Assembly: GCA_963823555.1 (NCBI GenBank)
Contig: CAWGMA010000001.1
Span: 1,120,001-1,184,000, forward strand
Reading direction: 5' to 3'
DNA from: Candidatus Eiseniibacteriota bacterium
GTDB taxonomy: Bacteria; Eisenbacteria; RBG-16-71-46; CAVPCR01
Length of the DNA stretch: 64,000 nt
Of the stretch, positions 28,065 through 46,448 are shown piece by piece (the stretch's first letter is position 1; each line of letters starts with the position of its first letter). Under the pieces are notes generated by a model. It was not told the DNA's origin. It saw nothing but the letters and a program-made list of their open reading frames with translations, and made no database searches. The position numbers were made by a program, and so were the translations under genes.

Positions 28065-30335
28065 ATGAGCCCGATGCCGACCTCAGAGGCGAAAGAGCCT
28101 AGCACCCCGCGCACCGGGCTGGCAAGCCCCGACCCTGGCGCGCCCTCGTCTGGCTCGGGGCCATCTCCTCGACCCGGATCTTCCCTGGCGGGTGAAGGGG
28201 ATGCCGGATCGGCGACCGTGGCGGAGGTCGGGGGGGGCTCGAACCCGCCTGCGGCCCGACCCCGCGGGGGAGGACTCGGCCTCGATGATCCGATCCAGTA
28301 CCTCCGCGGGGTGGGTCCGCGACGGGCCGAGCTCCTCATTCGAATCGCCGTCCGTACGCCCCGCGACCTCCTCCTGACCTTGCCCCGGACCTACTCGGAT
28401 CGAACGCAGATCAAGCCCATCGCCGAGCTGCGGGCCGGCGAGGCCGCCCTCATCATCGGCCATGTGGTCCGGGCGCAAGTCCGTCGTCGCCCGCGGAGCC
28501 GTCCCGACACGATGGCCGTCGTAAGGGATGAGAGCGGGGTCCTGGAGGTCGTGTGGTGGGGTCAGCCGTACATGCTGCGGCTCCTGCGTCCAGGGCTCGC
28601 CGTGGCCCTCTTCGGCGAGGTAGCGGTCTACCGACGGGGATTCACCATGAACTCCCCCGAGATCGAGGTGGTCGAACCAGGAGCCGAGAAGCCGGCCGGC
28701 ATCGTCCCCGTCTATGGCCTGACCGAAGGAGTGAGCCAGCGGACGCTACGTGATCTCGTCCAGCAAGTTCTCCCTCTCGCCCCCGGATTGGAGGAGACCC
28801 TGCCCGATCCCGTGCGTCGTGAGCACGAGATGCCGGGGATCGCCGCGGCGGTGGCGGCGGTGCACGCCCCCGGGTCGCTTGCCCAGGCGGCGGCAGCACG
28901 GCGCCGGTTGGCGTTCGATGAGCTCCTGGAACTCCTCGTCGCCCTCGGCGTCCGGCGCCGCCGGCGCCGACGAGAGCTTCCCGGGTTCGCCCAGAGTCCT
29001 GGACAGCGCTTCGCCGCGGCCCAGGCGGCGCTGCCCTTCTCGCTCACCGCCTCGCAGGAGCGCGTGCTCGGGGAGATCCTCGCCGACATGGCGGTATCAA
29101 GCCCCATGCATCGCCTGCTCGAGGGCGAAGTCGGTTCAGGCAAGACCGTCGTGGCGCTCCTCGCCGCGCTGGCGGCGATCGATTCCGGGCGCCAGGTGGC
29201 GATCATGGCGCCCACAGAGATCCTGGCCGCCCAGCACATGCGGACCGCCCTCAAGCTCCTTCCCGGGGTGCGACCGTTGCTCCTGACCGGCTCCTCAGGA
29301 AGCCGCGAACGACGGGAGCTTCTTGCGTCGCTGGCGCGGGGCGACGGGGAGCTGGCGATTGGTACGCACGCTCTGTTCTCGGCCGACGTCCACTTCCGCC
29401 GCCTGGGGCTCGTCGTGGTCGATGAGCAGCACCGGTTCGGGGTCAGCGAGCGAGTGGCCCTGGCCGAAAAGGGCGCCCTTCCGGACCTCTTGGTCATGAC
29501 CGCGACACCGATTCCACGGAGTCTCGCTCTCACCGTGTTCGGCGATCTCGACCTGAGCCTCATCGACGAGCGACCACCCGGGCGCCGACCGGCGCGAACC
29601 CACGTCGTCGAGACGACGAAGCGCGAGAAGGTGTACGAGTTCGTTGCGGGGCGCCTGGCACGCGGGGAGCAGGCCTTCGTGATCACCCCCCGAGTCGAAG
29701 CGGATCCCGCGAGCGAACTGTCAGCGGCCACCGAAAGGGCGGAGGAGCTTCGCCACCATCCACTCCTTGGCCAGCATCGAATCGGCCTGGTCCACGGCCG
29801 GCTTGACTCGCGCGACAAGGAAAAGGCGATGAGTGACTTCCGCCGGGGTGTCACCCGACTGCTCGTGGCGACGACGGTCGTCGAGGTCGGAGTGGATGTC
29901 TCCACGGTGACGGTCATCCTGATCGAGCACCCGGAGCGCTTCGGGCTGTCACAGCTCCACCAGCTTCGCGGTCGTGTCGGGCGTGGCGATCACGTGGCTC
30001 ATGCCATCCTCCTTGTCGACCCGGATCTCGATCCCGAGGTGCGGAACCGGCTCGAGGCCTTTGCCGGCACCGATGATGGATTTGCCGTGGCCGAGCTCGA
30101 TCTGGCTCAGCGCGGACCGGGCGCTCTTCTCGGCGATGCCCAGCACGGCTTCGGGAGCTTTCGCATCGCCCACCCACTTCGCGATCGCGAGCTCATCGAA
30201 CTTGCGCAGAGGGTCGCCGTCGATCTGGTCGACTCGGACCCGACGCTGTCCCGGCATCCGGCCCTCGCCCGAGCCGTGGAACGGCGCGCGCGAGGGCACA
30301 CCGCCGACCCGGATGACGTGCGGCTGACCGGCTGA
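28065..30335 (+). CDS. recG: ATP-dependent DNA helicase RecG
   Basis: LRGVGPRR, GEVGSGKT, MAPTEILAAQH, DEQHRFGV, MTATPIPR, QLHQLRGRVGRG, RGPG. Confidence 0.96.
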   Translation: MSPMPTSEAKEPSTPRTGLASPDPGAPSSGSGPSPRPGSSLAGEGDAGSATVAEVGGGSNPPAARPRGGGLGLDDPIQYLRGVGPRRAELLIRIAVRTPRDLLLTLPRTYSDRTQIKPIAELRAGEAALIIGHVVRAQVRRRPRSRPDTMAVVRDESGVLEVVWWGQPYMLRLLRPGLAVALFGEVAVYRRGFTMNSPEIEVVEPGAEKPAGIVPVYGLTEGVSQRTLRDLVQQVLPLAPGLEETLPDPVRREHEMPGIAAAVAAVHAPGSLAQAAAARRRLAFDELLELLVALGVRRRRRRRELPGFAQSPGQRFAAAQAALPFSLTASQERVLGEILADMAVSSPMHRLLEGEVGSGKTVVALLAALAAIDSGRQVAIMAPTEILAAQHMRTALKLLPGVRPLLLTGSSGSRERRELLASLARGDGELAIGTHALFSADVHFRRLGLVVVDEQHRFGVSERVALAEKGALPDLLVMTATPIPRSLALTVFGDLDLSLIDERPPGRRPARTHVVETTKREKVYEFVAGRLARGEQAFVITPRVEADPASELSAATERAEELRHHPLLGQHRIGLVHGRLDSRDKEKAMSDFRRGVTRLLVATTVVEVGVDVSTVTVILIEHPERFGLSQLHQLRGRVGRGDHVAHAILLVDPDLDPEVRNRLEAFAGTDDGFAVAELDLAQRGPGALLGDAQHGFGSFRIAHPLRDRELIELAQRVAVDLVDSDPTLSRHPALARAVERRARGHTADPDDVRLTG

Positions 30336-30375
30336 TCGCTCGGTGATCCCACCAGCGCGTTTCGGCCCAAAGCGG

Positions 30376-30391
30376 TGGCGGATTTCTTGCA
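30376..30391 (+). promoter_or_regulatory. Putative sigma54 (-24/-12) promoter upstream of the zinc-ribbon gene
   Basis: TGGCGGATTTCTTGCA: GG-N10-GC with TGGC and TTGCA matching the consensus, in an intergenic region. Confidence 0.6.
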
Positions 30392-30547
30392 TCTCGTCCT
30401 CGTCGGCTCGAAAGACGCCACCCACGCTGATGGGTGCATTCCCCCCAAGCCGCTGCCGCGGATCTGCCGCGTGCGGGCTCCGGTTGCCCGTATCCCTCGT
30501 CCCCGGCCCAACGTGCGCGGCCCCGGCGGCGGGCTGAGGATGATCCA

Positions 30548-31423
30548 GTGCTCGTGGTCTGCCCATACTGCGCCACGCGACACCGCGTGAGCACCGAACA
30601 CATCCCACCGCAAGGTGCACTGGCGCATTGCACGGGGTGTGGGCGTGCCTTCGGCGTGGGTGGGCGCGCGGCTCCGCCCGCGCAACCCCCGGAGGGTCCA
30701 GCGGCGCGGTCCGTCGAGGTCCGGGCGACGAGCCCGGAGAGACGCCAGGCACCGGCACCTGGGCCGGCCCGGCCGGCGCCGCGTCCACCCGAGCCAAGGC
30801 CGAGCCCCGCTCCCAGCGCTGCGAGCCCGGGTTCCGACCCGATCCCCGCCGCCAGGGCGGCGGCGACGAAGCCGGCATCCGAGCCGCGGCCGTCCCCATC
30901 CAGCGGGGAGAGCCCCGCTGCGGATGCTTCAGGGCGTGACGAAGCAGGGGCCAAGCGCCGAGTTCCACCGCGCTCGGCAGCAGCGAGCCCGATCGGTGCC
31001 CACATCCGTCTGAAGGCGCGCACGACCCAGCATCGGTCCCAGAAGCCCATGGCCAGCATTCAACTCAAGCATCAGATGGGCAACGGGGAGCGACCGCTTC
31101 TCGTCACGCATGGCTTCGGACTCGGTGACCAGGTTTCGTCCGGTGACTCGGTGAACCCGAGCGGCGCACCTTCCGATGCTCAGGTCACGCTCTCCGCAGA
31201 GGACCTGAGGCAGATCGCAGAGGACCTGATCACCGCGCTTTGCTCCGCGCATGCCGATCTGGTCGCCGAGGCCCGCGCCGATCATCGCTGGGACGCGCAT
31301 CTCGGCACCCTGGTGCGCGAAGCGTGGAGCGATTATCAGGCGGTGGCCGGAACGCAGGTTTCCGACGCGCACTTTCGGGCCGCGTTGAATCGGATCCTGG
31401 CGGACGGCAGGCCGGTGTTCTAG
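30548..31423 (+). CDS. MJ0042-type zinc-ribbon protein with a Pro/Ala-rich linker and a helical C-terminal domain
   Basis: GTG start after a GAGGA RBS. MLVVCPYC...IPPQG...HCTGCGRAF. Confidence 0.8.
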   Translation: MLVVCPYCATRHRVSTEHIPPQGALAHCTGCGRAFGVGGRAAPPAQPPEGPAARSVEVRATSPERRQAPAPGPARPAPRPPEPRPSPAPSAASPGSDPIPAARAAATKPASEPRPSPSSGESPAADASGRDEAGAKRRVPPRSAAASPIGAHIRLKARTTQHRSQKPMASIQLKHQMGNGERPLLVTHGFGLGDQVSSGDSVNPSGAPSDAQVTLSAEDLRQIAEDLITALCSAHADLVAEARADHRWDAHLGTLVREAWSDYQAVAGTQVSDAHFRAALNRILADGRPVF

Positions 31424-32628
31424 CCGCGCCGCGCCACGGCCACCGGCTCTTCCGCCTTGCGTACATCCGGGTCGGTGAGAACGCGCGGGCGGTGGGCCAC
31501 AGGAGTCGGCCAGTTCATCCCCGAGGCGGAGAGGGCCCGCGCATAGACCTGGATGAGCTTCTCGACCACGTTGTCCCAGGCATAGGTTCTGGCTCGTCGT
31601 CGGCCCGCTTCCCCCATCCTGGCCCGAAGCGTCGGGTTCATGAGGACGGCCGTCAGCGCCCTGGCAAGGCCGGCTGCGTCACGGGGGGGGACGAGGAGTC
31701 CGGTTTCACCGGGCTCGACGACCTGCCGGTACCCCGAGATGTCGCTTGCCACGACGACGCGAGAGCTAGCCATGGCCTCCAGCAGCACGATGCCGAAGCT
31801 CTCGTTGCGGACCGCTGGCGCGCACAGGCAGTCCGCCGCAGCATAGAGACGAGGAACGTTGGCTGCGGAGATCGGGCCGAGGAAGCGGACGAGGTCGGGC
31901 GCCTTGGTTTGCGCTCGTGCTCGGAGTTGTGTTGCTCGCGGCCCATCGCCGGCGATCAGGAGGCGGACACGACCGAGCTCCCGCGCCACCGAGGGCAGGG
32001 CATCGATCAGGTGCTCGAGGCCCTTGCGCGGATCGAGGCGCCCCATGGCGAGCACGGTCGGTACGCCGTCGCGCGGGAACAGCGGCGATATGGTGGGTGA
32101 GAAACGGTCCAGATCCACGCCGTTTGGAATGAGTTCGTAGGGACCGGGGAAGTACTGGCCGACGAAACGGCGCGCCGGCTCGCTGACGGCGACCGGCACC
32201 GTGATCTTGGCGAACTCGCGGGCGAGGGGTGGGCGGAACAGGGCATAGCCGAGATTCGAGCGTGCCGTGGCGTGGAACGTGCCCACGACGGGGCGACCAT
32301 CGGCTGCCTTGAGGGCGGCCAGTGGCAGCATCGGGGCGAGCGGGCAATGAACGTGCACGACATCGAATCGCTCGCGCCGGTAGATGTCCCGGAGGCGATT
32401 CACAAGGCCGATTCCGTACGTGAAGTTGACGGTGGCCCCGTTCCAGGGCACGAGGCGCTGGTTCCCGATGCGGATCACGCCACGTTCTTCCGCCGCCGTG
32501 GAGGCCCCAGCGGTGATCACGGTTACGCGATGGCCACGGTGGCGAAGGCCACGCGCCGTGGCCGCTACATTCTCGGTCACCCCCCCGTAATGTGGGTAGT
32601 AAGCGTGGGTGACGATTCCGATCCTCAC
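31420..32628 (-). CDS. Glycosyltransferase family 4, PimA-like
   Basis: MRIGIV...YGGV, GTFH, IPNGVD, GRLDPRKG, ESFGIVLLEAMA, SDISG. Confidence 0.85.
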   Translation of the reverse strand: MRIGIVTHAYYPHYGGVTENVAATARGLRHRGHRVTVITAGASTAAEERGVIRIGNQRLVPWNGATVNFTYGIGLVNRLRDIYRRERFDVVHVHCPLAPMLPLAALKAADGRPVVGTFHATARSNLGYALFRPPLAREFAKITVPVAVSEPARRFVGQYFPGPYELIPNGVDLDRFSPTISPLFPRDGVPTVLAMGRLDPRKGLEHLIDALPSVARELGRVRLLIAGDGPRATQLRARAQTKAPDLVRFLGPISAANVPRLYAAADCLCAPAVRNESFGIVLLEAMASSRVVVASDISGYRQVVEPGETGLLVPPRDAAGLARALTAVLMNPTLRARMGEAGRRRARTYAWDNVVEKLIQVYARALSASGMNWPTPVAHRPRVLTDPDVRKAEEPVAVARRG

Positions 32629-33554
32629 GCCCAGCCCCTCGTGTCTTGTGCGGCGCGTTGCATGGTGACATCGAGCCGCCCGCGGGTGTGGCGCTCCGGC
32701 GCGGCGCTCCACAGGGGCCGGAACAGGCACCACTGAGTCGGATCGGCGGCGATGGCGGTTTCGAGCGGAGCCAGGAGCTGGCGCATCGCGCTGGCCGAGT
32801 CGGCGCCGGGTTTGACGGGAGCGTGAATGGATGCGTGGAACTCGGCGGGCGCGACGCGCCGCATCGTGGCGGGAAGGAGTGCGGCTCCCGTCGCGCGTGC
32901 GAGGCGGACCGCGCCCCAGGGCAGATGGGCCGGTGCACCGAGGAAGTCGACCGGATTTCCCTGCTGGAAGACGTCGCCATCGATGAGCAGGGCGATGATC
33001 CGGTTGGAAGCGAGTTGCCGGTACAGGGAGCGCATGCCGTCCACCGGCCGGACCACGGCGATGCCGCGTCGCGCCTTGTCACGACGCACCGCGGGAGCCA
33101 GCCGTCCCAGTTGCTCGCCGGTGACCACGGTCAGAGGATAGCCGCTCGCGGCCAGTTCGGCGGCTGCCACCTCCCAGTTGCCCAGGTGGCAGGTGACGAG
33201 AATGGCACCGCGTCCGCCATCCAGGGCCTGGTCGATGTGCTCACAGCCGTCGATGCGTACGGGGAACCTGGCGCCGCCTCCGGCGCGCAGCCACTCGAAG
33301 AGCAGAGCGCCGTGGCTCTCGAAGGTGGCGCGGGCGAGGTCCGAGGGCGAAGGCCAGGCGGCGGCCCGCTGGCGGTGGCCATCCTGGCGAGCGAAGGCCA
33401 GAGCCCGAGCGAGGTTAGCCGTGACGGCCGCGCGCCGGCTGGGAGCGCAATGGTAGTGCAACCGAGCTCCGGCCCGCGCGATGGTATAGCCCAAGCGCAC
33501 GGGAAGGAGCCTGGCGATGGTCCTGAGGGTCGTCCAGCCGAGGGATGTGAGCAT
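32625..33554 (-). CDS. Lysophospholipid acyltransferase family protein (PatA / lipid A acyltransferase-like)
   Basis: GRGAILVTCHLGNWE (HX4E), PVDFLG, GAVRLARATGA, PTQW. The stop overlaps the GT4 start. Confidence 0.82.
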   Translation of the reverse strand: MLTSLGWTTLRTIARLLPVRLGYTIARAGARLHYHCAPSRRAAVTANLARALAFARQDGHRQRAAAWPSPSDLARATFESHGALLFEWLRAGGGARFPVRIDGCEHIDQALDGGRGAILVTCHLGNWEVAAAELAASGYPLTVVTGEQLGRLAPAVRRDKARRGIAVVRPVDGMRSLYRQLASNRIIALLIDGDVFQQGNPVDFLGAPAHLPWGAVRLARATGAALLPATMRRVAPAEFHASIHAPVKPGADSASAMRQLLAPLETAIAADPTQWCLFRPLWSAAPERHTRGRLDVTMQRAAQDTRGWA

Positions 33555-33642
33555 CGCGATGCGGCAGCGTGGTCAGAAGACTTCTCCGGCCTCGCGACCC
33601 CCGTCCCTCGGGGTCCCCGATCGCCGGAGCCAACCGTGCTGC

Positions 33643-33672
33643 ACGCTATGGAGGGGGAGGCAAAGCTGTCAA
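33643..33672 (-). promoter_or_regulatory. sigma70 promoter of the acyltransferase-GT4 operon
   Basis: Minus strand reads TTGACA-N18-TAGCGT. Confidence 0.55.
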
Positions 33673-34161
33673 GCAGTAAGCGCGAGAGGGGGGAGTGCCG
33701 CCTGTCCTGGCTCCTAGTCCGGGCCGGCGGGTTCAGGCCCGCCAGAAGGAGAGCGCGGGATGGTCGATGATCGACCACCGCACGCACCGAGGCGGGAGAT
33801 TCTGGACCGCTCGCCGGCGAATCCTGACCTACTCCGTGTCCTTCCAGGGTGGGGGGCCAGCCGGCGCCCGCCGTTCGACCGGCTCCTCGGCAGATCCCCG
33901 GGTCCCAGCCCCGGAGTAGCCACAGCGCTGCTCGGCGGCTTGAGCAAGCAGGCAATCCGCGCGCAGGGAACAAGTTTCCCAGTTGCCCGTCAACGGACAG
34001 GACAGATAGACTCGGTTTTCGCGACGACAGTAAGCCGCCGACACCCGGCGCGCCCGACGCAACCCAAAGCCCTTCATCGCAGACCTCCGCGCTCGATCGT
34101 CCATCGAAACAGCGCTCACTTCCCGGGCCTCGCAACGGTCGTGCCACACGCGAGGAGGAGC

Positions 34162-34569
34162 ATGGCGAGTCTCAAGATGGTGCGCTGCCAGGTCCGCCGC
34201 GCGGGTTCTCCGGCACCGCCTTCACATCGCTATGTTCCTCTCGACGTCTTCCACCTGTGGCAGTTCCTGATGGAAGTCCGCCACGGTTTCGAGGTCGTCG
34301 GTCCGAATGCCTCGATCTGGATCGATCTCGAAGATCAGAGGGAGATGTCCTTCTCCGCGGGTCAGTTCGAGCGGGTCGACGAGATCTGCCTGCACGTCTA
34401 TTCAGAAAAAGACGGTATGTTCCGCAAGATCTGCCGATACTTCCGGACGGAGGAGAGAGACCGCCTGACCGGCGTTCTCCTTCGCCACTACGCTCCGTAC
34501 GTCTATGAGGATGCCCGCCGCCCCCAAGTCAGCGAGCGCGCAGGCATCTGGATCGTGCGGGAAGCATAG
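34162..34569 (+). CDS. Hypothetical protein (135 aa)
   Basis: Strong GAGGAGGAG RBS before the ATG, typical codon usage and globular composition (MASLKMVRCQV...GIWIVREA). Confidence 0.75.
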   Translation: MASLKMVRCQVRRAGSPAPPSHRYVPLDVFHLWQFLMEVRHGFEVVGPNASIWIDLEDQREMSFSAGQFERVDEICLHVYSEKDGMFRKICRYFRTEERDRLTGVLLRHYAPYVYEDARRPQVSERAGIWIVREA

Positions 34570-34605
34570 CCAGCGGCAATCCACCGGGCGTTGCGCACGC
34601 GCGCC

Positions 34606-34621
34606 AGGCGCGAATCGTGCA
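34606..34621 (+). promoter_or_regulatory. Possible sigma54 promoter upstream of the mglA-like gene
   Basis: AGGCGCGAATCGTGCA: GG-N10-GC, 3 mismatches to TGGCACG-N4-TTGCW. Confidence 0.35.
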
Positions 34622-34736
34622 GACTGCAGGCTCGCTGGCCGGCAAGCCCGAACTCCGAGCATGCCGGTGTTCTCACGCCTTGCGGCGTGTCGCGGGCAGC
34701 CGCCGGCCGAATCCAGCTGAGAGGAGCCAGATCCCC

Positions 34737-35903
34737 ATGGTCGTGGTCAGCTACTCGGGCAAAGAGATCAACGCCAAGATCGTCTACTACGGCCCCGGGC
34801 TGTGCGGCAAGACGACCAACCTCGAGCGCATCTACGAGGCGGTCCCGGCAGCGAACAAGGGCAAGATGATCTCGATGAAGACCAAGGCGGACCGCACACT
34901 CTTCTTCGACTTCCTGCCACTCGAGCTGGGAGAGGTGGGTGGCTTCCGCACTCGCCTCATGCTCTACACGGTGCCGGGGCAGGTCTTCTACAACGCGACA
35001 CGCAAGCTCGTGTTGAAGGGTGTCGATGCTCTGGTCTTCGTCGCTGACTCGGAACGCGGCAAGATGCAGGAGAATCAGGCCAGCCTGGAGAACCTGCGAG
35101 AGAACCTGGAGTCCTACGGCATGGACCTGGACGAGCTCCCGCTGGTCTTCCAGTACAACAAGCGGGATCTGCCGAGCGTCTACACTCGGGAGGAGCTCGA
35201 CCAGGCTCTCAAGCGCGGCGACCGCCCGATGGTGGAAGGGGTGGCGGCGAAGGGCGAGGGTGTCTTCGAGACCCTGCGCCTGGTCTCGGAACTCCTGCTC
35301 ACTCGACTCCGGGCCCGGCTCGGCGCGGCGTCGTCCGCCCCGCGTGGGCGGGAGGAAGACCCGACGGCCTCCCGGGCGGAGCGGCCCACGGCGGCCGGAC
35401 CGATCGCCCAGGCCCCGCCGGTGATGCATCCGGGTCTGCACGGCGGATCCCAGCCCGCTCCCGCCCCGGGGCCGGTTGCATCCGCAGACACCCCTGCTTC
35501 GCCCCCCCGTCCGCGGGTTCCACTGGGCCAGCCGATTCCCCTGGCCCCGCGGCCGGTGTCGGCGGGGGCCCAGCTGGGTCCCAAGGGCCCGCTGCCGTGG
35601 CGTCCCGAGCCCGGTGCCACGCCGCAGCCGGAACCGCACCAGCTCGAGATCGTGCGGCTCGACAGCGCCGTCCAGCCCGAGGACCCGGACGTTCCCGAGG
35701 CATCCTCAGAGCCCCTGGCTGCAGAGGCGGTCCAGAGCGACAGGGAACGTGATCATCCAGCAGCTCCCACACCGGCAGGAACGAACCGCCTCGTGGTTCC
35801 GGTCCGGATCGAACGCGACGACATCGAAGATGTCGAGTCGATCGAGATCGTCCTGCGCCTCGAGATCGGGCAGCCCAAGGCCCGGCGTCAAGTTTCAGGT
35901 TGA
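34737..35903 (+). CDS. mglA: MglA-family small Ras-like GTPase with a Pro-rich linker and an extra C-terminal domain
   Basis: KIVYYGPGLCGKTTNL, DRTLFFDFLP, LYTVPGQVFY, FVADS, NKRD. GAGGAG RBS. Confidence 0.92.
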   Translation: MVVVSYSGKEINAKIVYYGPGLCGKTTNLERIYEAVPAANKGKMISMKTKADRTLFFDFLPLELGEVGGFRTRLMLYTVPGQVFYNATRKLVLKGVDALVFVADSERGKMQENQASLENLRENLESYGMDLDELPLVFQYNKRDLPSVYTREELDQALKRGDRPMVEGVAAKGEGVFETLRLVSELLLTRLRARLGAASSAPRGREEDPTASRAERPTAAGPIAQAPPVMHPGLHGGSQPAPAPGPVASADTPASPPRPRVPLGQPIPLAPRPVSAGAQLGPKGPLPWRPEPGATPQPEPHQLEIVRLDSAVQPEDPDVPEASSEPLAAEAVQSDRERDHPAAPTPAGTNRLVVPVRIERDDIEDVESIEIVLRLEIGQPKARRQVSG

Positions 35904-35929
35904 CCGCCGCGCGTAGCCACTGCTAGCTT
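35900..35929 (+). promoter_or_regulatory. Putative sigma70 promoter for the TPR gene
   Basis: TTGACC-N18-TAGCTT with an extended -10 TG. Confidence 0.45.
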
Positions 35930-36076
35930 GCGCCGCGTAGGGGTTCGTCTCCCGCTCCTGCGCGTCGTTGAGCGTTGTGCGCCGTCATCCCAGGATTTCA
36001 CGCTCCGCCAGGCCAGGCGTCTCGTTGCGGCGGCGCCACACGCAGATCTCTTTCACCCCGATCTGGTGACAACGCC

Positions 36077-36946
36077 ATGAAGCCTTCGGATCCGCTCCTT
36101 CCCGGGGTCGCCGGCGATCGTACCCATGTCGTTTCCACATCCGGGACCGAAAGGCCCGCGGGGACTTCTCCCGCGCCGGGCCAGGGGCCGCAGATCACAC
36201 GCGCCGAGATCCAGTCGGCCTTTCGCGATGGGCTGAACGCGCTCAAGCGCGGGCGCCTTGCCGAAGCGGAGCAGCTGCTCGCTTTGACGCTGAAGCGAGA
36301 TCCGAATCATGTCGCCGCGCGCATCAACCTCGCGCTGGTCGCCGATCGACGTGGCGACCGCGACGGGGCACTGCGCGAGCTGCGTACGGCGGCCCGGCAG
36401 GACGGTACGCGCGCAGAGGCCTATGTCAACCTCGGCGCCATCCTGGCCGAGGCTGGTCGCATGACCGACGCCGCCGACTACTTGAGGCGGGCCAGTCAAC
36501 TGGCTCCCGATATGTTCGAGGTCCACTACAACCTCGGTCTATTGCATTATCGCAACGGGCTCCTCGACGATGCCGTCATCGCTTTCGACCGCGCCCTGGT
36601 CCTCGATCCCGATCGGTTCGAGGCTCTCTTCTACCGTGGATTGATCCTGTCCAAGCGGGGACGAGGGCAGGACGCGCTGGCAACCCTCGAGCGCTGCCAC
36701 ACCCTGTCGCCACGCCATCCTGCCACCCTCTATCACCTCGGCGTGGCCTACTGCCGGGCGGATCGCTTTGCAGAGGCCATTCGCACCCTGGAGACAGCGG
36801 TCCAGCTGGTGCCTGATTGCGCGCGTGCCCACTATTACCTGGGCATCGCCTACGATCGTGCCGGGCGAGCCGGGGACGGAGCCACGGCGTTCCGCCGAGC
36901 GAGCGAGCTCAGAGCGTCGGGTGAAGGCAGCTATCGGGTCGACTAG
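36077..36946 (+). CDS. Tetratricopeptide repeat protein (about 7 TPRs)
   Basis: Repeated 34-aa units (AYVNLGAIL, VHYNLGLL, ALFYRGLI, TLYHLGVAY, AHYYLGIAY). Confidence 0.9.
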   Translation: MKPSDPLLPGVAGDRTHVVSTSGTERPAGTSPAPGQGPQITRAEIQSAFRDGLNALKRGRLAEAEQLLALTLKRDPNHVAARINLALVADRRGDRDGALRELRTAARQDGTRAEAYVNLGAILAEAGRMTDAADYLRRASQLAPDMFEVHYNLGLLHYRNGLLDDAVIAFDRALVLDPDRFEALFYRGLILSKRGRGQDALATLERCHTLSPRHPATLYHLGVAYCRADRFAEAIRTLETAVQLVPDCARAHYYLGIAYDRAGRAGDGATAFRRASELRASGEGSYRVD

Positions 36947-37149
36947 GCGGGTGCGATTGGTCTCAGCGAATCAAGCCATCTTGCCGGCGAACGCGACTGT
37001 TCGCACCGCCCGCCTGCCGTGAACGGATCCACGGCATCCGGTCCCCTTGAAGAATCCATTCTCGCGAGCCGGAGGTCTGGTTGTCGCGAAACCGCCGGTC
37101 CGATCGTATCATTATTGTTGACAGCTAGTTACGGTCATAACTTAAGGCG

Positions 37150-37932
37150 ATGTCTGCGATCATGCCCTACTTGAACTACATCATTCTTGGCCTCGTGCAA
37201 GGCGTGACCGAGTTCCTGCCTATCTCGAGCGATGGCCACCTGGTCCTCCTCGGTCACTGGATCCAGACACCCGGCGATGGCATTGCCGTGGTCATCTTCC
37301 TCCACGCGGGTAGTCTGGCCGCCCTGCTGTGGGCATTCCGCCGCGATCTTCTCGGGATCTTCAGGAGCCCGGAACCAGGGCAGGTGGGCGGGCCGAGGCT
37401 GCTCGGACTCCTCATCCTGGCGACGGTGCCTGTCGTCATCGTCGGGCCCACGCTCTACTCGGCGTTCAGCGCTGCCTTCGAATCCTCGACCCTGGCCGCG
37501 TGGATGCTGATCATCAATGGCCTCATCCTGATCTCCACCCGGGCCTCTCGCGTGGGGAATGCCACGGTCAACGTGGCCACGGCACTGGCCATGGGCTGTG
37601 TCCAGATCTTCGCCCTGCTTCCCGGTATTTCGCGTTCCGCGCTGACCATGTCCACCGGGTTCGCCCTCGGCCGTGACCGGGTGCAGGTGGCTCGCTTCTC
37701 GTTCTTGATGGCCGTGCCGGCCATCGCCGGCGCCAACATCTACGAGATCATGAAGCTCGACTCGATGAGCGGCATCGAACCGCTCGGGCTGGCGATCGGC
37801 ATCTTCACCGCATTCATCTCGGGGCTGATTGCCATCAAGGCCTTGTTGCTCCTGGTGAGGCGAGGCCGCTTCGAGTGGTTCGGCGTCTACTGCGTCTTGC
37901 TGGGCATCCTCTTCATCATCCTCGGCATCTGA
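37150..37932 (+). CDS. uppP: Undecaprenyl-diphosphatase UppP/BacA
   Basis: GLVQGVTEFLPISSDGHL, PGISRS, RFSFLM. Confidence 0.95.
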   Translation: MSAIMPYLNYIILGLVQGVTEFLPISSDGHLVLLGHWIQTPGDGIAVVIFLHAGSLAALLWAFRRDLLGIFRSPEPGQVGGPRLLGLLILATVPVVIVGPTLYSAFSAAFESSTLAAWMLIINGLILISTRASRVGNATVNVATALAMGCVQIFALLPGISRSALTMSTGFALGRDRVQVARFSFLMAVPAIAGANIYEIMKLDSMSGIEPLGLAIGIFTAFISGLIAIKALLLLVRRGRFEWFGVYCVLLGILFIILGI

Positions 37933-38148
37933 GCTTCACCCCACCCGTCTGGTCATCGTTCCTCGTCCCTCGTCTACGTAGTTGGAGGGGATGATGTCTC
38001 CACCGGCCTGGTCTCCGCGCCGTGTGTGTGCTACATTGCCGCGCAACTCGCGGGCCCTCGCCCCGAGCAGCGCAGCATGACAGGCCAGGGTGTCTCGCAC
38101 GCGCGATGGATTTCAGCACGAGTGCGAGCTCTCAACTTGGAGGTTCCC

Positions 38149-39301
38149 ATGGCCGACGACGTGGCGATCGGCCCGGATGTGTGCGGGGAAGTGGTTCCAC
38201 TTCGAGAATCCGCCGCGCGCGCCCTGGCCGAGCTGCTGGCCGATCGCCTGCACCTGGCCGCCATCGCGGTCGCTGCTGATGGCCGCATCGAGCTGGCCAA
38301 TCGTGCCGCCGCAACGCTCTTCGCCACGGCCGAGCACGGCCTCCTCGGCATCCCGGTGACCGACGTGCTTGGCGCGAGCCCCGTGCTCGTCCGAACGCTG
38401 GAGGCGGCCCGGGGTGGCGCCGGCGGCACGCTGGACCTCTCGCCTCAAGGCGACCACGAGCCTGCGTTCCACCTGAGCATCCTCCCGGTTCCCAAGACCG
38501 GCGGTGCGCTCCTCCTCATTGCGGCCCACGCCGCGGCGAGCGCGGAGGAGGATTCGACTCACCGCCTGGCTGCGCTCGGCCGCCTCTCGGCCGGCATGGC
38601 GCACGAGATCCGCAATCCGTTGTCGGGAATCGGCACCAATGCCCAGGTTCTACGCCGGCGTTTCGAGGATGGTGATTCCCGGATTCGGTTCGTGGACTTC
38701 ATCCTCGAAGAGGTCACCCGGCTCGATCGCATCATCGAGGACCTCCTGCGTTTCGCCCGTCCACCCGAGCCGCGTCTGGCTCAGCACGACCTGCGCGAAG
38801 CGATCGCCCGGGTCCTCACCCTGGCGCGAGGACGAATCGACAAGACCGGAGTCGAGGTCGATGTCACCGTGGAAGGCGAGCCCCCGGCCGCCTTTGTCGA
38901 TGCCGATCAGATCGCCCAGGTCCTGTTGAACATCGTGCTCAATGCGGTCCAGGCCATGCCCCAGGGCGGCCGACTCACCATCATCCTCAAGGCCGTCGAA
39001 CGTTTGGCGCCCGTGGTCGGTCGCACCGGTCGCCGGGCAGACGATGGCGCCGCCAGCGGTGGCTCCACGGTTCCCCTGCGCCGCTTCCTCGAGATCGAAG
39101 TCCGAGACACGGGTGTCGGCATCGACCGTGGCGACCTGCCCAAGCTGTTCGAACCCTTCTTCACCACGCGCCCGAGCGGTACCGGGCTTGGCCTTTCCAC
39201 GTCCCAGGCGCTGGTGCGCCAGCATGGCGGAGCAATCAGCGTCGAGAGCGAACTGGGGAAGGGGACGGTGGTCACCATCCTGATCCCCGTGGAGAAGCGA
39301 C

Positions 39302-39315
<14 letters not shown>
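38149..39315 (+). CDS. Cytoplasmic sensor histidine kinase (PAS-like + HisKA + HATPase; NtrB/AtoS-like)
   Basis: AHEIRNPL H-box, LNAVQAM N-box, DTGVGI, FEPFFTT, GTGLGL. Confidence 0.92.
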
Positions 39316-40771
<1,456 letters not shown>

Positions 40772-40802
40772 CCTCCGGCCGCTCAGCGCCGTCCGGCGGT
40801 GC

Positions 40803-40837
40803 GGGCGGTATTTCGCCAGGACCCGTGCATACCGCCC
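40803..40837 (+). terminator. 9-bp inverted repeat downstream of the activator gene (possible terminator, no U-tract)
   Basis: GGGCGGTAT-N17-ATACCGCCC. Confidence 0.3.
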
Positions 40838-40865
40838 TCGGGGCTCGCGTTCTGCACGCCCGGGG

Positions 40866-40903
40866 TGAGCCACCTCTTTCCGGTGCTGGCTCATTTCTGA
40901 TCC
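40866..40903. promoter_or_regulatory. Candidate upstream activator sequence for a sigma54 activator
   Basis: TGAGCCA-N14-TGGCTCA inverted repeat overlapping GGCTCA-TTTC-TGATCC, about 135-170 bp upstream of the -24 element. Confidence 0.4.
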
Positions 40904-41034
40904 CTCCCGGCCTCGCCCTGCCCGCCGCCCCGCTCCCGGAAGCCGATCGCCCGGCGCCCTCTACGGCGCGGAACGCTCGTTCCAGTCGCGGCTTCCGCCT
41001 TCTGTTCAGCCCCCCGGACCCGGCCTCGAGGGCC

Positions 41035-41050
41035 GGGCATGGCCCTTGCA
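41035..41050 (+). promoter_or_regulatory. sigma54 (-24/-12) promoter for the receiver-sigma factor operon
   Basis: GGGCATGGCCCTTGCA versus consensus TGGCACG-N4-TTGCW. Intergenic, next to a sigma54 activator gene. Confidence 0.65.
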
Positions 41051-41116
41051 GCCTGCCTCCCGTGGTGTCTTTCGCCCCAGCCAGGTTCGGCGCCCATCCA
41101 GGGCGGTCGAACCTGG

Positions 41117-41521
41117 ATGACCTCTGCGAGGAAGCGTCCGGTGTCCAAGGTCACCAAGTCCATCCTCATCGTGGATGACGAGCAGGCCACTGCCTGGGCT
41201 CTGGCCGAGGGGCTCAGCGAAGAAGGGTTTGCGATCCGCACCGCCCATTCGGCCACCGAGGCCGAGGCGGCGTTCGCGACCCAGCCCGCCGACCTCGTCA
41301 TCACCGATCTCCGCCTCCCGGATCGCAATGGATTCGAGTTGCTCCTGCGGCTTGGAGTCAATGGTTCGCGACCGCTGGCGATCATCGTGAGCGCGTGGGG
41401 TGGGCCTGAGATCGAGCAGAGCGTGAAACGGAGCGGAGCGCTCGCCTATGTCCAGAAGCCGTTTGATGTCGAGAGGTTGAAGGAAATGGTGGCGGGGGCG
41501 TTGGCCCCGACCTCCCGCTGA
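41117..41521 (+). CDS. Single-domain response regulator (CheY-like)
   Basis: ILIVDDE, ITDLRLP (phospho-Asp), IVSA, QKPF. Confidence 0.9.
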   Translation: MTSARKRPVSKVTKSILIVDDEQATAWALAEGLSEEGFAIRTAHSATEAEAAFATQPADLVITDLRLPDRNGFELLLRLGVNGSRPLAIIVSAWGGPEIEQSVKRSGALAYVQKPFDVERLKEMVAGALAPTSR

Positions 41522-41546
41522 GCGCCCAACCGAGCGAGGAGAGCTC

Positions 41547-42491
41547 ATGTCGCGAACTCTCGAAGCCCAGCTGATCGAAGAGGTCGAAACGCAGAAGCCG
41601 CAGCCGCGCTCGGCTCGCGCCGGGCATCTGCCGCGCCGGTCAGCGGAATCGGCCAAGGCCCCCCGCGAGCATGGGAGCCACGGGAAGCGGGCGAACGGCC
41701 ACCCCGTCAACGGCCACCCGATCAACGGACATCGCCTGAAGGAAGTGGCGCTGCCCGTGAACGGGCGTGGCCGCGAGCGTGAGCGGCAGGTCGAGGATGT
41801 CCTCTCTCGCTACTCGCCGCTCGTCAAGTACGTCGTGGACAAGATCTCAGCCACTCTGCCCAAGACGGTTGATCTCGATGACTTGAACAGCTCGGCGGTC
41901 ATCGGTCTCTATGACGCCTGGGAGAAGTTTGACTCGACGCGGGGCACTAAGTTCGAGACCTATGCCGTGTGGCGGATTCGCGGCGCGGTGCTCGACGAAC
42001 TGCGCGCCCTCGACTGGGCCTCCCGCACGACGCGGCGCAAGGCGCGCCACGTGGAGGAGGTGAGCCGCGACCTGGATCAGAAGCTGGGACGGGCCGCGAG
42101 CGACAATGAAATCGCCGAAGCGCTGGGTCTCGATGTCCAGGAGTTCTTCCGTCTCTCGGATCAGGTGCAGAACGCCATCCACCTCTCCCTCGAGCGACCC
42201 CAGTCCCATGACGAGTCATCCGATGTGATGGGGCTAGGTGAGGCGCTCGAGGCCGAGGACACGGTGGATTCCCTGCAGGTGATCGAGCTCGAAGAGGCTC
42301 GGGCCATCTTGCTCGGAGCCATCAACCATTTGCCCGAGCAGGAGCGACTCGTCGTTGCCCTCTACTACTACGAAGAGCTCACCCTCAAGGAGATAGGGGA
42401 GATCCTCGGCATATCCGAATCGCGGGTGTCGCAGGTGCACACCAAGGCCATTCGCCGCCTCCGCCGGCGAGTGCCGGAGCTCGCGGCCTGA
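41547..42491 (+). CDS. FliA/WhiG-family (sigma28-like) RNA polymerase sigma factor
   Basis: KFETYAVWRIRGAVLDELRALDW, LYYYEELTLKEIGEILGISESRVSQVH. Confidence 0.95.
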   Translation: MSRTLEAQLIEEVETQKPQPRSARAGHLPRRSAESAKAPREHGSHGKRANGHPVNGHPINGHRLKEVALPVNGRGRERERQVEDVLSRYSPLVKYVVDKISATLPKTVDLDDLNSSAVIGLYDAWEKFDSTRGTKFETYAVWRIRGAVLDELRALDWASRTTRRKARHVEEVSRDLDQKLGRAASDNEIAEALGLDVQEFFRLSDQVQNAIHLSLERPQSHDESSDVMGLGEALEAEDTVDSLQVIELEEARAILLGAINHLPEQERLVVALYYYEELTLKEIGEILGISESRVSQVHTKAIRRLRRRVPELAA

Positions 42492-42569
42492 CGCCGCCAA
42501 GCGAGCCAGGACGCGGCTGGGCGTACCCGGCATTGGGTCAAGGTCGATAGAGAACAAGCGAGGGAGAGC

Positions 42570-43904
42570 ATGGCGCGCAGGAATGGACGCGGTTCGAAGA
42601 GTCTGGCAGAGACCATCACCCAGTTCGAGCGCTCGGAGCTCAGGCTCCTGCGCTCGGCAAGCCTGGCCCAGGTCTTGAGTCAACGTGAGGCGGAGCGGCT
42701 CGAAGAACGGTTCACCCAATCGTCTTCGCAGAAGCGGTCATCGGATGTGCTGGCCGCGGCCATCCACCTCAACAAGCTGCTGAGTGCTTCCTTGCGCGAC
42801 GCGGCGGCGAGCGAGAAGCCGGGAGTGCAGCCGCAGTTCGAGGTGCTGGCCGAGATGGCCGGAGCGCTCCGGGGTGAGGCTCGTCCCGCCGACGCCCTGG
42901 TGCAGCTTCTCACGCTCCTGGGTCAGCTCGTTCCCTATACGCGGGCGACCGTCTTCGTCTTCGACGAGCTCAAGCAACGGCTCGATCCGATGGCTGCAGT
43001 GGGGGGTCGCGTGGACCTCATCGAAGGGGTCTCGTTCGAGCTGGGGAGCGGCTTCTCATCGTGGGTCGCCAAGCGCAAGAAGCCGACTCTTCTCACCGAC
43101 CTGCAGCGCCCGGCGGCCGAGGGCGAGGAGCCGCTGCGCTGCTTCATGTCGGTGCCGGTGCTGGTGCACGGCGAACTGGTCGGTGTCCTCAACCTCGGGC
43201 ACCGGGAGGCGCGCGCCTTCGATGAGGATCACCTGCGTCTGGTGAGCGCTGTGGCCTCGTTCCTGGGCGCGACGCTGACGCGGGAGGTGACCGCGCTCAG
43301 GCTTGCCGCGCAGGCGGCCAACGATCCCCTGACCGGAGTTCTCACTGCCAAGCAGCTCGAACGCCGGAGCTATGAGGAGACCGATCGCAGCCGGCGCTAC
43401 GGTGATCCGCTCACCCTCCTGCTGCTCAAGGTGTCATCGTTTCCCGAATTCGTGGCCGCCCACGGTCTGGGCACCGCCGAAGCGATGCTTCGTGAGCTCG
43501 GGTCGGTGCTCAAGTCCACCGTTCGCTGCGTCGATCCGGTCGGGCGCGTCGGTACCGACGAGTTCGCCATGCTCCTCGTGCACACGACGGCACCTGAAGC
43601 CACGGCGGCTGCCGAGCGTCTCGTCGAGGCGGTGAGCCGGCACAGCTTCCCGCGCCGCAAGCGGATCAAGGTCGATCATGCGCTCGCCGCTTTCCCGGAG
43701 GGCGGCGAGGACTTGCGTGAGCTTCTGGCCAGCGCCCGCCAGCGACTGGCAGTGGCGGGCACCACCTCTTCAGCATCTCCGGCTGGCGATGCGGCGAACC
43801 CATCTCAGGCCGCCGCGGCCGGCGAGCCTGGGCATGGCGGCGCGGATCCGGAACGGCCCTTCGGGTCCCTCGATTCATTCGCCGACCAGGAAGACGAGTC
43901 GTAG
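42570..43904 (+). CDS. GAF + degenerate GGDEF (GTDEF) domain protein
   Basis: GAF (FMSVPVLVHGELVGVLNL...FDEDH). DPLTG, RCVD I-site, RVGTDEF. Confidence 0.85.
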   Translation: MARRNGRGSKSLAETITQFERSELRLLRSASLAQVLSQREAERLEERFTQSSSQKRSSDVLAAAIHLNKLLSASLRDAAASEKPGVQPQFEVLAEMAGALRGEARPADALVQLLTLLGQLVPYTRATVFVFDELKQRLDPMAAVGGRVDLIEGVSFELGSGFSSWVAKRKKPTLLTDLQRPAAEGEEPLRCFMSVPVLVHGELVGVLNLGHREARAFDEDHLRLVSAVASFLGATLTREVTALRLAAQAANDPLTGVLTAKQLERRSYEETDRSRRYGDPLTLLLLKVSSFPEFVAAHGLGTAEAMLRELGSVLKSTVRCVDPVGRVGTDEFAMLLVHTTAPEATAAAERLVEAVSRHSFPRRKRIKVDHALAAFPEGGEDLRELLASARQRLAVAGTTSSASPAGDAANPSQAAAAGEPGHGGADPERPFGSLDSFADQEDES

Positions 43905-43934
43905 CAGGGAGAGGGAGAAAGGTCTGATCGCCGT

Positions 43935-45665
43935 ATGAGCACCCCGGCCAGGATCCTCGTCGTCGATGACGAGCCGGACATCCGGGAGATCCTCGAGGAC
44001 TTCCTGACGCCGCGTGGCCATGAAGTGGAGGCGGTGGGGACCGCCGAGGAAGCCCTCGCGCGCCTGGCGCCGGGGCACTTCGCGGCCATGATCCTCGACC
44101 TCAAGCTCCCCGGACGTGATGGGCTTGCGCTCCTGGCCGAGGTCCGTGGGTTGGACCCAGAGCTCGCGGTCATCATCATCACCGGCTATGCCACCGCTGA
44201 CTCCGCCATCGTGGCCCTTCGCCGCGGGGCCGATGACTATCTGCAGAAGCCGTTCGAGCTCGAATCGCTCGCTGCGGCCCTCGAGCGGGCCCTCGAGCGC
44301 CGGCAACTGAAGCGGCAGAACCGCGTCCTCGTCGCCCGCCTCCGGCGCGCCAACAAGAAGCTCGGCCGGCGCGGGCTGGAGTTGCAGGAACGCGTGGCCG
44401 AGGCCACGCGCAATCTGCGCCTGCTGCTCGATCTTGCCCGCGGTCTCGGCAAGGACCTCGATCTGGCGCAGACGCTCCATGGGGTCGCCGAGCGCGCCGT
44501 GGCACTCACGCATGCCCGTCTCGGGCTCGTCTTCCTGCGCACGGCTGCCGGCGGTCGCTTCGAGCTCGAGGCGGCAGCCCCGGCGGGCGGCCTCCCCGAG
44601 CCCGAGGCTTCCTTCGGTCCCGGGGAGGGCCTGGCTGGCCACGCGGTTCTGTTCGGCCGTACCCTGGCCCTGGGTCCCGAGACCGATCCCCTGGAGACCA
44701 CCGATCCGCTGAATGTCTTCGCTCCGGCGAGCGCGCTCGCCGTGCCGCTGGTCTGGGAGGGAACGGCGATCGGAACGCTGGTCCTCATCGACAGCCAGAG
44801 CGAGCGATCGGCGGGAGAGACGGGGGAGACGGCTCTGGTGAGCGGCTTCAGTGCCGAGGAGCAGGATCTGGCGCAGACCTTCGCCGCCCATGCCGCCGTC
44901 GCCATCCGCAATGCCCAGATCTACGAGGAGGCTCGCCGCCTCGACCGACTGCAATCCGAGTTCATCGCCGCGGTGTCCCACGAGCTGCGGACGCCGCTGA
45001 CCAAGATGAAGGCCTCGCTCGAGATCCTGGATACCTACTACGCACCTCAGCTCGATGCCTCGGCCCGGGAACTGCTTACGATCTCCGACGGGGCCGTGCG
45101 CCAGCTGGAGGATCAGATCGAGCTCATCCTCGCCTCGGCCGAGGTCGAGGGCGAGATCCAGCTCGATACCGCCGACATTCCCGCCAGCGAGATCCTCGAG
45201 GAAGCGGTCCGTCGTCTGCTGCCGGTCGCCTCACGCAAGGGCATCCGGATCGATGTCAAGGCGACGCCCGCCGGAGTCATGGTGCGCGTCGACCGGCAGC
45301 GCTTCATCCGCGTGCTGGCCAATCTTCTCTCCAACGCGGTCAAGTTCTCCGAGAACGGAGAGCATGTGCAGATCGAAACCGAGGTGGTCGAGAATCGCGT
45401 GCGCTTCCACGTCATCGATCGGGGCGTGGGTATCGAACCCCGGGATCAGGCCCACATCTTCCGTCGCTTCGCCCAGCTCGACGGCTCGTTGACGCGACGC
45501 GCCGGAGGGACCGGTCTCGGGCTCTCGGTGTCGCGCGCGCTGGTCGAGCGCCACGGCGGTTCGATCACCGTTCTCAGCCGACCGGGAGTCGGCAGCACCT
45601 TCACGGTCGAGGTCCCGGTGGCCGCCGCCAGCGCCGGCAACGAGCGCATCGTCAGCGCCGCCTAG
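43935..45665 (+). CDS. Hybrid sensor kinase REC-GAF-HisKA-HATPase
   Basis: ILVVDDE, ILDLKLPG, GAF, VSHELRTPL, NLLSNAVKF, DRGVGI, GGTGLGL. Confidence 0.93.
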   Translation: MSTPARILVVDDEPDIREILEDFLTPRGHEVEAVGTAEEALARLAPGHFAAMILDLKLPGRDGLALLAEVRGLDPELAVIIITGYATADSAIVALRRGADDYLQKPFELESLAAALERALERRQLKRQNRVLVARLRRANKKLGRRGLELQERVAEATRNLRLLLDLARGLGKDLDLAQTLHGVAERAVALTHARLGLVFLRTAAGGRFELEAAAPAGGLPEPEASFGPGEGLAGHAVLFGRTLALGPETDPLETTDPLNVFAPASALAVPLVWEGTAIGTLVLIDSQSERSAGETGETALVSGFSAEEQDLAQTFAAHAAVAIRNAQIYEEARRLDRLQSEFIAAVSHELRTPLTKMKASLEILDTYYAPQLDASARELLTISDGAVRQLEDQIELILASAEVEGEIQLDTADIPASEILEEAVRRLLPVASRKGIRIDVKATPAGVMVRVDRQRFIRVLANLLSNAVKFSENGEHVQIETEVVENRVRFHVIDRGVGIEPRDQAHIFRRFAQLDGSLTRRAGGTGLGLSVSRALVERHGGSITVLSRPGVGSTFTVEVPVAAASAGNERIVSAA

Positions 45666-45710
45666 GCGAGAGCTCTCCCGGACCGACTCGAGGCCGACTC
45701 GAATCGCCGC

Positions 45711-46448
45711 CTAGCCGCCGCTCGGTCGTGGGGTGCCCTTGCGCAGCACGAGGATGAAGTCGCTGTTCAAGGGATCGATGCGGCCGAGCGACACGATCCG
45801 CCCGATCAGGCCTCCCGCCGACAGGATCGCGTTCAAGAGCGGATGATTCTTGCGCAGGCGGCGCTGCATCAGGGACTCGTAAGCCGAGAAGTACTCGACG
45901 GTGAGCCCCGCCTCCCGGGCGAATCGATGGAGTGCGCGCGGAGTGGTCGCCGGGCGAAGGTAGGTGGGGAATGGCCCCCGGCTCTCGGTTCCGGCCCGCG
46001 ACACGCCCCACAGTCGCCGGTAGGCCCAGACATGGAAGCGATAGGGCGTGAGCTTGGTGATGATCCCCTTGATCGAGACCAGGTTGGGGAGCGCGAGGAC
46101 CATGAGCCCGCCGGCCTTGGTGGCGCGGACCAGGTTGGCGAGGGCCTTCTCGGGCCGCCGCAAGTGCTCGAGCACGTCCCAGCACACGATGACATCGAAC
46201 TGATCGGCCGGCGCATCCCAGGTTTCGAGGTCGGCCACGATCGCTTCCGCGATCCTGTCGTGGCGAGACAGCTGTTCGGCCGAGATGTCGACTCCGACCA
46301 CGTGAGCCGAGCCGAGATCGACGTGGCTGAGTGAGCCGCAGCCGGCCTCGAGCACTCGGGGCTGGCCCGAGCTCGCGCCCAGCCGATCGAGCACCGCTTG
46401 CAGCTTGGCGATCTCGGGGTCGAGATGTCGATGGGCGGGGCCGCTCAT
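45711..46448 (-). CDS. Class I SAM-dependent methyltransferase
   Basis: VLEAGCGS, VGVDIS, FDVIVCWDVLEHL, KAGG. Confidence 0.88.
   Translation of the reverse strand: MSGPAHRHLDPEIAKLQAVLDRLGASSGQPRVLEAGCGSLSHVDLGSAHVVGVDISAEQLSRHDRIAEAIVADLETWDAPADQFDVIVCWDVLEHLRRPEKALANLVRATKAGGLMVLALPNLVSIKGIITKLTPYRFHVWAYRRLWGVSRAGTESRGPFPTYLRPATTPRALHRFAREAGLTVEYFSAYESLMQRRLRKNHPLLNAILSAGGLIGRIVSLGRIDPLNSDFILVLRKGTPRPSGG

Follow-up and report, generated by a model that had tools for sequence, protein, structure and literature searches.

The window analysed here is a stretch of 64,000 nt (C1:1120001-1184000) from the genome of a Candidatus Eisenbacteria member (G000; 4.6 Mb, 4 contigs, 92.5% complete). Its positions 30376-45665 hold two groups of genes. 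The left half includes genes for a zinc-ribbon protein, a glycolipid pair (a glycosyltransferase and an acyltransferase), an extended MglA GTPase and a TPR protein; the right half, behind uppP, encodes a soluble histidine kinase, a sigma54 activator, a single receiver, the sigma factor FliA, a GAF-GGDEF protein and a hybrid kinase (Table 1). A first-pass annotation of this DNA had proposed that the genes form one module for polarity or lifestyle, built from the same parts as the MglA systems of Bdellovibrio and Myxococcus. The genes that it listed are present with the domains it gave them (MJ0042, MglA, TPR, kinase/activator, receiver, FliA/WhiG, GGDEF and hybrid kinase) and all lie on the + strand as it said, but three - strand genes (GT4, acyltransferase and a small Cys-rich gene) break the run, and the last of them had escaped that annotation. 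What the module reading misses is the history of the right half: the regulators at 38149-45665 are very probably the remnant, judging from gene order in relatives, of a flagellar cluster that lost its structural genes, likely by deletion. The regulatory genes adjoin one another because they remain from that cluster.

Our comparison set throughout is 40 relatives from 15 families (G001-G040; n=41 together with G000). In G022, a single contig carries a complete flagellar cluster from uppP to the hybrid kinase: flgF to flgL, fliW, csrA, fliC, fliS, fliD, a PilZ gene, a kinase with its activator (pair A) and a second such pair (B), and then flgB to fliR, flhB, flhA, flhF, flhG, fliA, an HDOD gene, the GAF-GGDEF gene and the hybrid kinase gene. 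The cluster is in place in seven relatives (on one contig in G022 and G015; across contigs in G009, G017, G028, G033 and G038), and in these flagellated relatives the full cluster is bracketed by the same genes, in the same order, as in the window, from which about 54 kb of structural genes are absent. By best hits, the kinase and activator of the window correspond to pair A; they also group in the pair A clade (support 0.90), apart from pair B. The FliA protein falls among the FliA proteins of Eisenbacteria, which are split from those of other phyla with support 1.0. As the first-pass annotation had noted, there are no flagellar genes nearby; none was found elsewhere in the genome either (no flagellin, FlhA or rod gene, and no counterparts of the structural genes of G022). 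The gap sits inside one contig, so incompleteness of the genome cannot explain the missing cluster. A small cheA-cheW-MCP cluster is located elsewhere in the genome.

Retention of the regulators is widespread in the phylum: FliA is found in 39 of the 41 genomes, and 27 of these 39 have no FlhA. Several genomes without the cluster keep remnants of it at the same place, e.g. a fliW-csrA-flagellin fragment in G008, fliW-csrA-flhG in G016, csrA and flhG in family f10, csrA, fliN, flhG and HDOD in f9, and FlgM-like genes in f4 and f12. On an RpoB tree (poorly matching stretches masked; G020 left out as too short; G013, G019, G030, G035 and G036 without an rpoB match) genomes without flagella are interspersed among those with the seven in-place clusters. 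The tree gives five losses within a 15-genome clade (Shimodaira-Hasegawa-like approximate likelihood ratio test 100), one of which (G007) rests on absence from a genome that is 86% complete, and nine losses if the root had the cluster. rpoB is frameshifted in two of the assemblies (G000 C3:544186-547144 and G001 C4:715181-718919), and pilB and the Tad ATPase gene of G000 also look split; sequencing indels are the probable cause, and open frames that look broken in this genome should therefore be read with caution. Flagellar genes away from the locus are found in seven other genomes, and six of these also carry a second, distant fliA; a second flagellar system elsewhere is listed for G001 (same genus), G019, G020, G013, G026, G029 and G036. 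Loci with fliA, csrA (mostly also fliW) and signalling genes, and with structural genes absent nearby, are also found in genomes labelled Zixibacteria, Ignavibacteria or Calditrichaceae (L079, L082, L083, L089, L095, L101, L104, L113, L137 and L149; FlhA in none of the five tested). It seems that flagellar regulators were retained in these sister phyla as well.

Table 1. Genes, sites and gaps between positions 30376 and 45665 of the window
Feature	Position	Strand	Remark
sigma54-type site 5' of zinc-ribbon gene	30376..30391	+	moderate; 6/8 here
MJ0042 zinc-ribbon protein	30548..31423	+	TIGR02098 over cut-off
GT4 glycosyltransferase	31420..32628	-	domain match
Lipid A/PatA-family acyltransferase	32625..33554	-	domain match
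Small Cys-rich gene, YCRxxNR...CP...C...C	33829..34077	-	first gene of - strand unit
Strong sigma54-type site	34131..34146	-	at least 7/8 in 15/17 loci
135-aa protein, unnamed family	34162..34569	+	in 24/41 genomes
Weak sigma54-like match	34606..34621	+	5/8, chance level in this lineage
Extended MglA paralog	34737..35903	+	Group 1 GTPase domain, linker, C-terminal two-strand motif
Soluble TPR protein, 289 aa	36077..36946	+	domain match
uppP/bacA	37150..37932	+	left flank of ancestral flagellar cluster
216-nt gap	37933..38148		G022 counterpart is 23 kb with flgF-flgL, fliW, csrA, fliC, fliS, fliD
Soluble histidine kinase	38149..39315	+	best-hit counterpart of post-fliD kinase in flagellated relatives
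REC-sigma54 activator-Fis	39302..40771	+	groups with first activator of flagellar cluster
0.8-kb stretch	40772..41546		G022 counterpart is 31 kb with second kinase/activator pair, flgB to flhG
Conserved sigma54-type site before receiver-fliA-GGDEF-kinase	41035..41050	+	7/8 here
Single-domain receiver, 134 aa	41117..41521	+	one domain; not RomR
FliA/WhiG-family sigma28	41547..42491	+	TIGR02479 256 bits, cut-off 190
GAF-GGDEF protein	42570..43904	+	active site decayed (GTDEF), RxxD retained
REC-GAF-histidine kinase	43935..45665	+	right end of ancestral flagellar cluster

The retained regulators are constrained. The ratio of nonsynonymous to synonymous substitution rates (dN/dS) of FliA is close to that of FtsZ (0.064 vs 0.065 in the comparison with G001; 0.124 vs 0.139 with G003), its promoter-reading regions 2.4 and 4.2 are intact and almost without change, and the activator and mglA are, like fliA, under strong purifying selection. 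The activator has its Walker A motif, the receiver Asp and the Fis helix-turn-helix. The GAF-GGDEF protein has changed: it reads RCVD-5-GTDEF, with the correct spacing of the I-site, and a metal-binding Asp is lost too. Its GGDEF motif is intact in four of four genomes with flagella in place that were compared and decayed in 12 of the 15 others, nine of which keep RxxD (three of the orthologs in f12 are without the domain). With RxxD kept and the active site decayed, the protein looks like a cyclic di-GMP (c-di-GMP) receptor, in keeping with the first-pass annotation. No FlgM was found in the genome using PF04316, and a profile of five sequences gave a best E-value of 0.48, FlgM being short and divergent.

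Sigma54-type sites were scored out of 8 against the sigma54 consensus, and rpoN, whose presence the first-pass annotation had wanted checked, is found in the genome. Across the window such matches are not above chance (44 vs 36+-6 at 2 mismatches). The first-pass annotation had placed three of them correctly, at 30376, 34606 and 41035, but they differ in strength. The site at 41035 is strong: it scores 7-8/8 in all nine loci that have this receiver (chance 0.0024 per 300 nt), a site of at least 6/8 lies within 450 nt after activator A in 16 of 25 loci, and the proposed step from sigma54 to sigma28 is likely. Among flagellated loci, six of seven also have a sigma54 site 5' of flgF. The moderate site at 30376 scores at least 6/8 in 7 of 14 loci. 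The match at 34606, before mglA, is at chance level (5/8; chance 0.13 per 300 nt), and the four closest relatives, G001-G004, lack it; 7/8 sites are found at its place in eight genomes of families f9 and f12. The strong - strand site at 34146-34131, which the first-pass annotation had overlooked, points at the Cys-rich, acyltransferase and GT4 genes; therefore the glycolipid pair probably shares the sigma54 regulon.

A paralogous unit of kinase, sigma54 activator, sigma54 site, single receiver and Hc2-like gene is encoded at C1:634-638 kb of the genome (L233:383-4147). Its activator is sister to the window clade and its receiver is 39% identical to that of the window; the Hc2-like gene encodes a Lys/Arg-rich protein whose match is under the Pfam cut-off.

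In the left half, the MglA protein matches that of Myxococcus xanthus (E-value 7e-73). Group 1 MglA proteins have a GxxxxGKT P-loop, an intrinsic arginine beside G2, TVPGQ as G3 and NKRD as G4, and are shorter than 240 aa (PMC4316618). G21, R53, TVPGQ and NKRD are invariant in 30 of 30 proteins of the window type, and the protein of the window is 388 aa long, with a low-complexity linker and a conserved motif at the C-terminus besides the GTPase domain. From its motifs it is a Group 1 GTPase, and it is a second, extended copy: the genome also has a canonical recR-mglB-mglA locus, with mglB directly 5' of the mglA there (C1:2002356-2001329). The statement of the first-pass annotation that mglA has no adjacent mglB thus applies to the window and not to the genome; the MglB-less cases are in 11 relatives (families f8, f13, f14 and f15), where the extended MglA is present and no roadblock/MglB match was found. 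The extended MglA is found in 34 of the 41 genomes at an identity of at least 63%. The data point to an undescribed extended subfamily, kept more widely in the phylum than the canonical MglB-MglA pair. Gene order is conserved, as synteny checks called for by the first-pass annotation indicate: the TPR gene is directly 3' of the extended mglA in 20 of the 26 Eisenbacteria loci with enough sequence, and mglA and fliA have the same orientation and lie within 61 kb in all 15 genomes that have both on one contig. Sigma28 sites were searched with a model built from 12 sites 5' of fliC and csrA in relatives. A site scoring at least 13 precedes mglA in 18 of 31 Eisenbacteria loci (recG 0/20, uppP 0/20) and a sigma54 site precedes it in eight others. 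In all, mglA has a sigma28 or sigma54 site in 26 of the 31 loci, in keeping with the co-regulation that the first-pass annotation had suggested, but not in those of G000-G004.

Outside the phylum on the RpoB tree, one genome (L219:1-3585) has GT4/acyltransferase genes, an extended mglA with the same C-terminal motif, a TPR gene and a sigma28-like site; judging from this arrangement, the MglA block may predate Eisenbacteria. In family f10, the mglA leader (L041, L047, L048, L061 and L020) contains a conserved non-coding stretch with complementary segments, possibly a structured RNA. In the window, Rfam has no matches within positions 30000-46000.

Predicted targets are also found outside the locus. 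The top sigma28 hit in the genome (promoter at C1:1486228) is 5' of a gene for a 106-aa protein that resembles BON domains in its model (BonA, E-value 6e-4, template-modelling score 0.54), followed by genes for TPR, PEGA and probable lipoproteins (L224:972-6146; G000 C1:1.481-1.486 Mb). A sigma28 site of at least 13 recurs before the BON-like gene, in non-coding sequence, in 13 of 26 relatives (vs 2 of 250 control windows), and in G009, G022 and G033 a sigma54 site replaces it. Type IVa and Tad pilus gene sets are both full in the genome. A sigma28 site 5' of pilT (C1:788934 in G000), outside conserved coding sequence, is common to G000, G001 and G002; pilT-upstream hits in f9, f12 and G017 were rejected as a codon pattern of the end of pilB. 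The gene pilM is present in all 41 genomes, with a sigma54 site of at least 7/8 in 15 of 29 (G000 included; control 1/288) and a sigma28 site in seven other genomes.

The explanation that we favour, with moderate confidence, is that the right half consists of the regulators of a lost flagellar cluster, and that they form a working cascade likely driving type IV pilus and surface genes. We are rather confident that the retained sigma54-sigma28 cascade works, and give pilus and surface genes as its output slightly more than an even chance. The soluble kinase would phosphorylate the activator, which would open the sigma54 site at 41035 and thereby allow transcription of the receiver, fliA, GAF-GGDEF and hybrid kinase genes. 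As promoter footprints suggest, FliA, for which no FlgM was found, would read few promoters (the BON-like/TPR operon and pilT-pilC), and sigma54 would read pilM together with the Cys-rich/acyltransferase/GT4 unit and, probably, the gene of the zinc-ribbon protein. The GGDEF protein would once have been a cyclase and now be a receptor for c-di-GMP. The left half, with the extended mglA, the TPR gene and the genes around them, would be an older neighbour, part of the same regulon in most of the phylum and likely acting on pilus placement. A wider version, in which the cascade was kept through at least five flagellum losses because type IV pili and the extended MglA were by then under its overall control across the phylum, with MglB-less function in several families and a change from cyclase to receiver several times in parallel, is tentative, and on balance we doubt it.

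Several observations weigh against the favoured explanation. The regulatory links to all targets are sequence predictions. In genome-wide scans (the first-pass annotation had called for one with sigma54), high-scoring hits of both the sigma28 and the sigma54 model show no enrichment relative to shuffles; the scans served only to pick candidates. Half of the pilT-upstream hits in relatives (6/12) are coding artefacts of the end of pilB. The genome has about ten sigma54 activators, PilR among them, so pilM and the remaining sigma54 sites may depend on one of these others, and no shared upstream activator site was found. The loop of the activator is GSFTSA (GAFTDA in most relatives), where GAFTGA is expected of enhancer-binding proteins. 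The promoter link of the left half is weakest in this very lineage: the five of 31 loci in which mglA lacks a clear promoter site belong to G000 and its four closest relatives. Because housekeeping flanks (ftsZ, recG and valS) are also syntenic, neighbourhood alone leaves the mglA block untied to the regulators. The RpoB tree is weak at its deep nodes, and since the relatives are kin and not independent, the counts overstate.

Other explanations fit parts of these data. The kept cascade could time a developmental or dormancy switch, like WhiG in Streptomyces or the sigma factors of Chlamydia, with pilus genes only part of its output; to our knowledge no developmental stage is known for the phylum, and we consider such a switch unlikely. 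The predicted targets do include envelope genes (BON-like, glycolipid pair), and the Hc2-like, histone-like gene behind the paralogous kinase-activator-receiver unit recalls hctB, which is read by sigma28 in Chlamydia (PMC12282069). However, that weak Hc2-like match lies behind a sigma54 site, not a sigma28 site, and the best-footprinted targets are pilM and mglA. That the regulators are an older stand-alone cassette into which flagellar genes were inserted in one branch is very improbable. All seven in-place clusters do belong to one clade, and the second, unrelated systems of some genomes indicate that flagella do move, but flagellar remnants occur in this position in families outside the clade as well, the clade itself would still need five losses, and structural genes of flagella lie within 10 kb of fliA in 51 of 78 FliA loci, mostly from other phyla. 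We give the least credence to a decaying relic held together only by slow rearrangement: the equal synteny of the flanking housekeeping genes, the decayed GGDEF active site and the failure to find FlgM would agree with it, but not the purifying selection on fliA, activator and mglA, the near-universal presence of FliA or the conserved promoter sites.

The polar hub of the first-pass annotation, in which MglA would act without MglB and bind the TPR, receiver, zinc-ribbon and GGDEF proteins of this locus, is also improbable. Its models are Bdellovibrio MglA-Bd2492-RomR-CdgA (PMC3983030) and Myxococcus MglA-SgmX/GltJ (PMC7519303, PMC11135422), with which this genome shares a Group 1 MglA, a soluble TPR protein, a zinc ribbon, a degenerate GGDEF protein and type IVa pili. 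The frequent order mglA-TPR, the kept RxxD, the 11 relatives with an extended MglA and no roadblock protein found, and the recurrence of the mglA-TPR-glycolipid arrangement in one genome outside the phylum agree with a hub. As to differences, mglB is present elsewhere in the genome, MglA has a 190-aa extension, and Gly21 is kept (30/30), where Bdellovibrio MglA has Ser21 (PMC3983030). The window receiver is without the C-terminal region of RomR (the rest of the genome was not searched for RomR). The zinc-ribbon protein, which also has a low-complexity linker and a conserved helical C-terminal domain, matches GltJ/AgmX only in the zinc ribbon, no GYF domain or membrane/hydrophobic segment being found in it, and the two GYF_2 matches of the genome are on another contig, which leaves no GltJ/AgmX architecture in the window. 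The best match to GltG reaches 52 bits over 78 positions (cut-off 650) in a genome that is 92.5% complete, and other Glt genes were not searched. The TPR protein is generic, with consensus TPRs as best matches and mglA and uppP, not tamAB, as neighbours; SgmX has 1060 aa (PMC7519303). The ancestor of the GGDEF protein is the cyclase in the flagellar cluster. Losses also strike the parts one by one: mglA occurs without the TPR gene in six loci, the TPR gene without mglA in G015, and the 135-aa gene without mglA in G006 and G013.

Some polar flagellar hierarchies depend on sigma54, as in FleQ-FleSR-FliA of Pseudomonas and FlrABC of Vibrio. G022 is similar, having two sigma54 activators between fliD and flgB/fliE, sigma54 sites before rod genes and fliA after flhF-flhG; unlike in those hierarchies, the first activator has a kinase of its own beside it, and of the two pairs the window retains this one alone. 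Flagellar regulators without flagella are already known. Non-flagellated Legionella retain mainly regulator genes, and in L. oakridgensis FliA and FlgM were kept, there working, after loss of the flagellar regulon (review, PMC5655016); here, in contrast, the sigma54 pair, promoter, GGDEF protein and hybrid kinase are kept as a block phylum-wide and no FlgM was found in the genome. Chlamydia trachomatis also has both alternative sigma factors, no flagella and very small regulons, with the sigma factors late in the developmental cycle and sigma28 under Euo (PMC12282069); unlike there, a sigma54 site is directly before fliA here and relatives reveal the flagellar origin. WhiG of Rubrobacter radiotolerans, likewise a sigma factor of the flagellar clade, is predicted to read type IV pilus promoters, has a link to c-di-GMP and is controlled by the anti-sigma factor RsiG (PMC8325347), for which the sigma54 tier and the degenerate GGDEF protein are the candidates here. 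In the titles and opening parts of abstracts available, with few subscription papers covered, we found nothing about MglA or flagellar regulators in Eisenbacteria. The new points are that an entire two-tier block was retained repeatedly and across the phylum, and that it has a predicted connection with pili and an extended MglA. With the cluster whole, half-eroded or reduced to regulators in sister lineages, and promoter sites before pilM and mglA switching between sigma54 and sigma28, the phylum offers a repeated natural experiment in regulatory co-option, and testable targets for a sigma28 without a flagellum to build. It also cautions that one should check what relatives hold in between before calling gene clusters new modules.

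Two small genes of the left half match no named family. The model of the 135-aa protein (predicted local distance difference test 88) has its best fold match at Z 4.7, to ACT-type domains, which is no clear match; the family comprises 209 clusters and has one member fused to a receiver domain. That it is a hidden MglB is unsupported: there is no Pfam match, the strand/helix order of the model is unlike roadblock, and no roadblock was among the fold matches, which by itself does not exclude that fold. The small Cys-rich gene, which has no Pfam matches, is found in 17 loci (dN/dS 0.19 vs G001). With its four cysteines it is kept in at least six families, is retained where its neighbours vanish and lies behind one of the best-conserved sigma54 sites.

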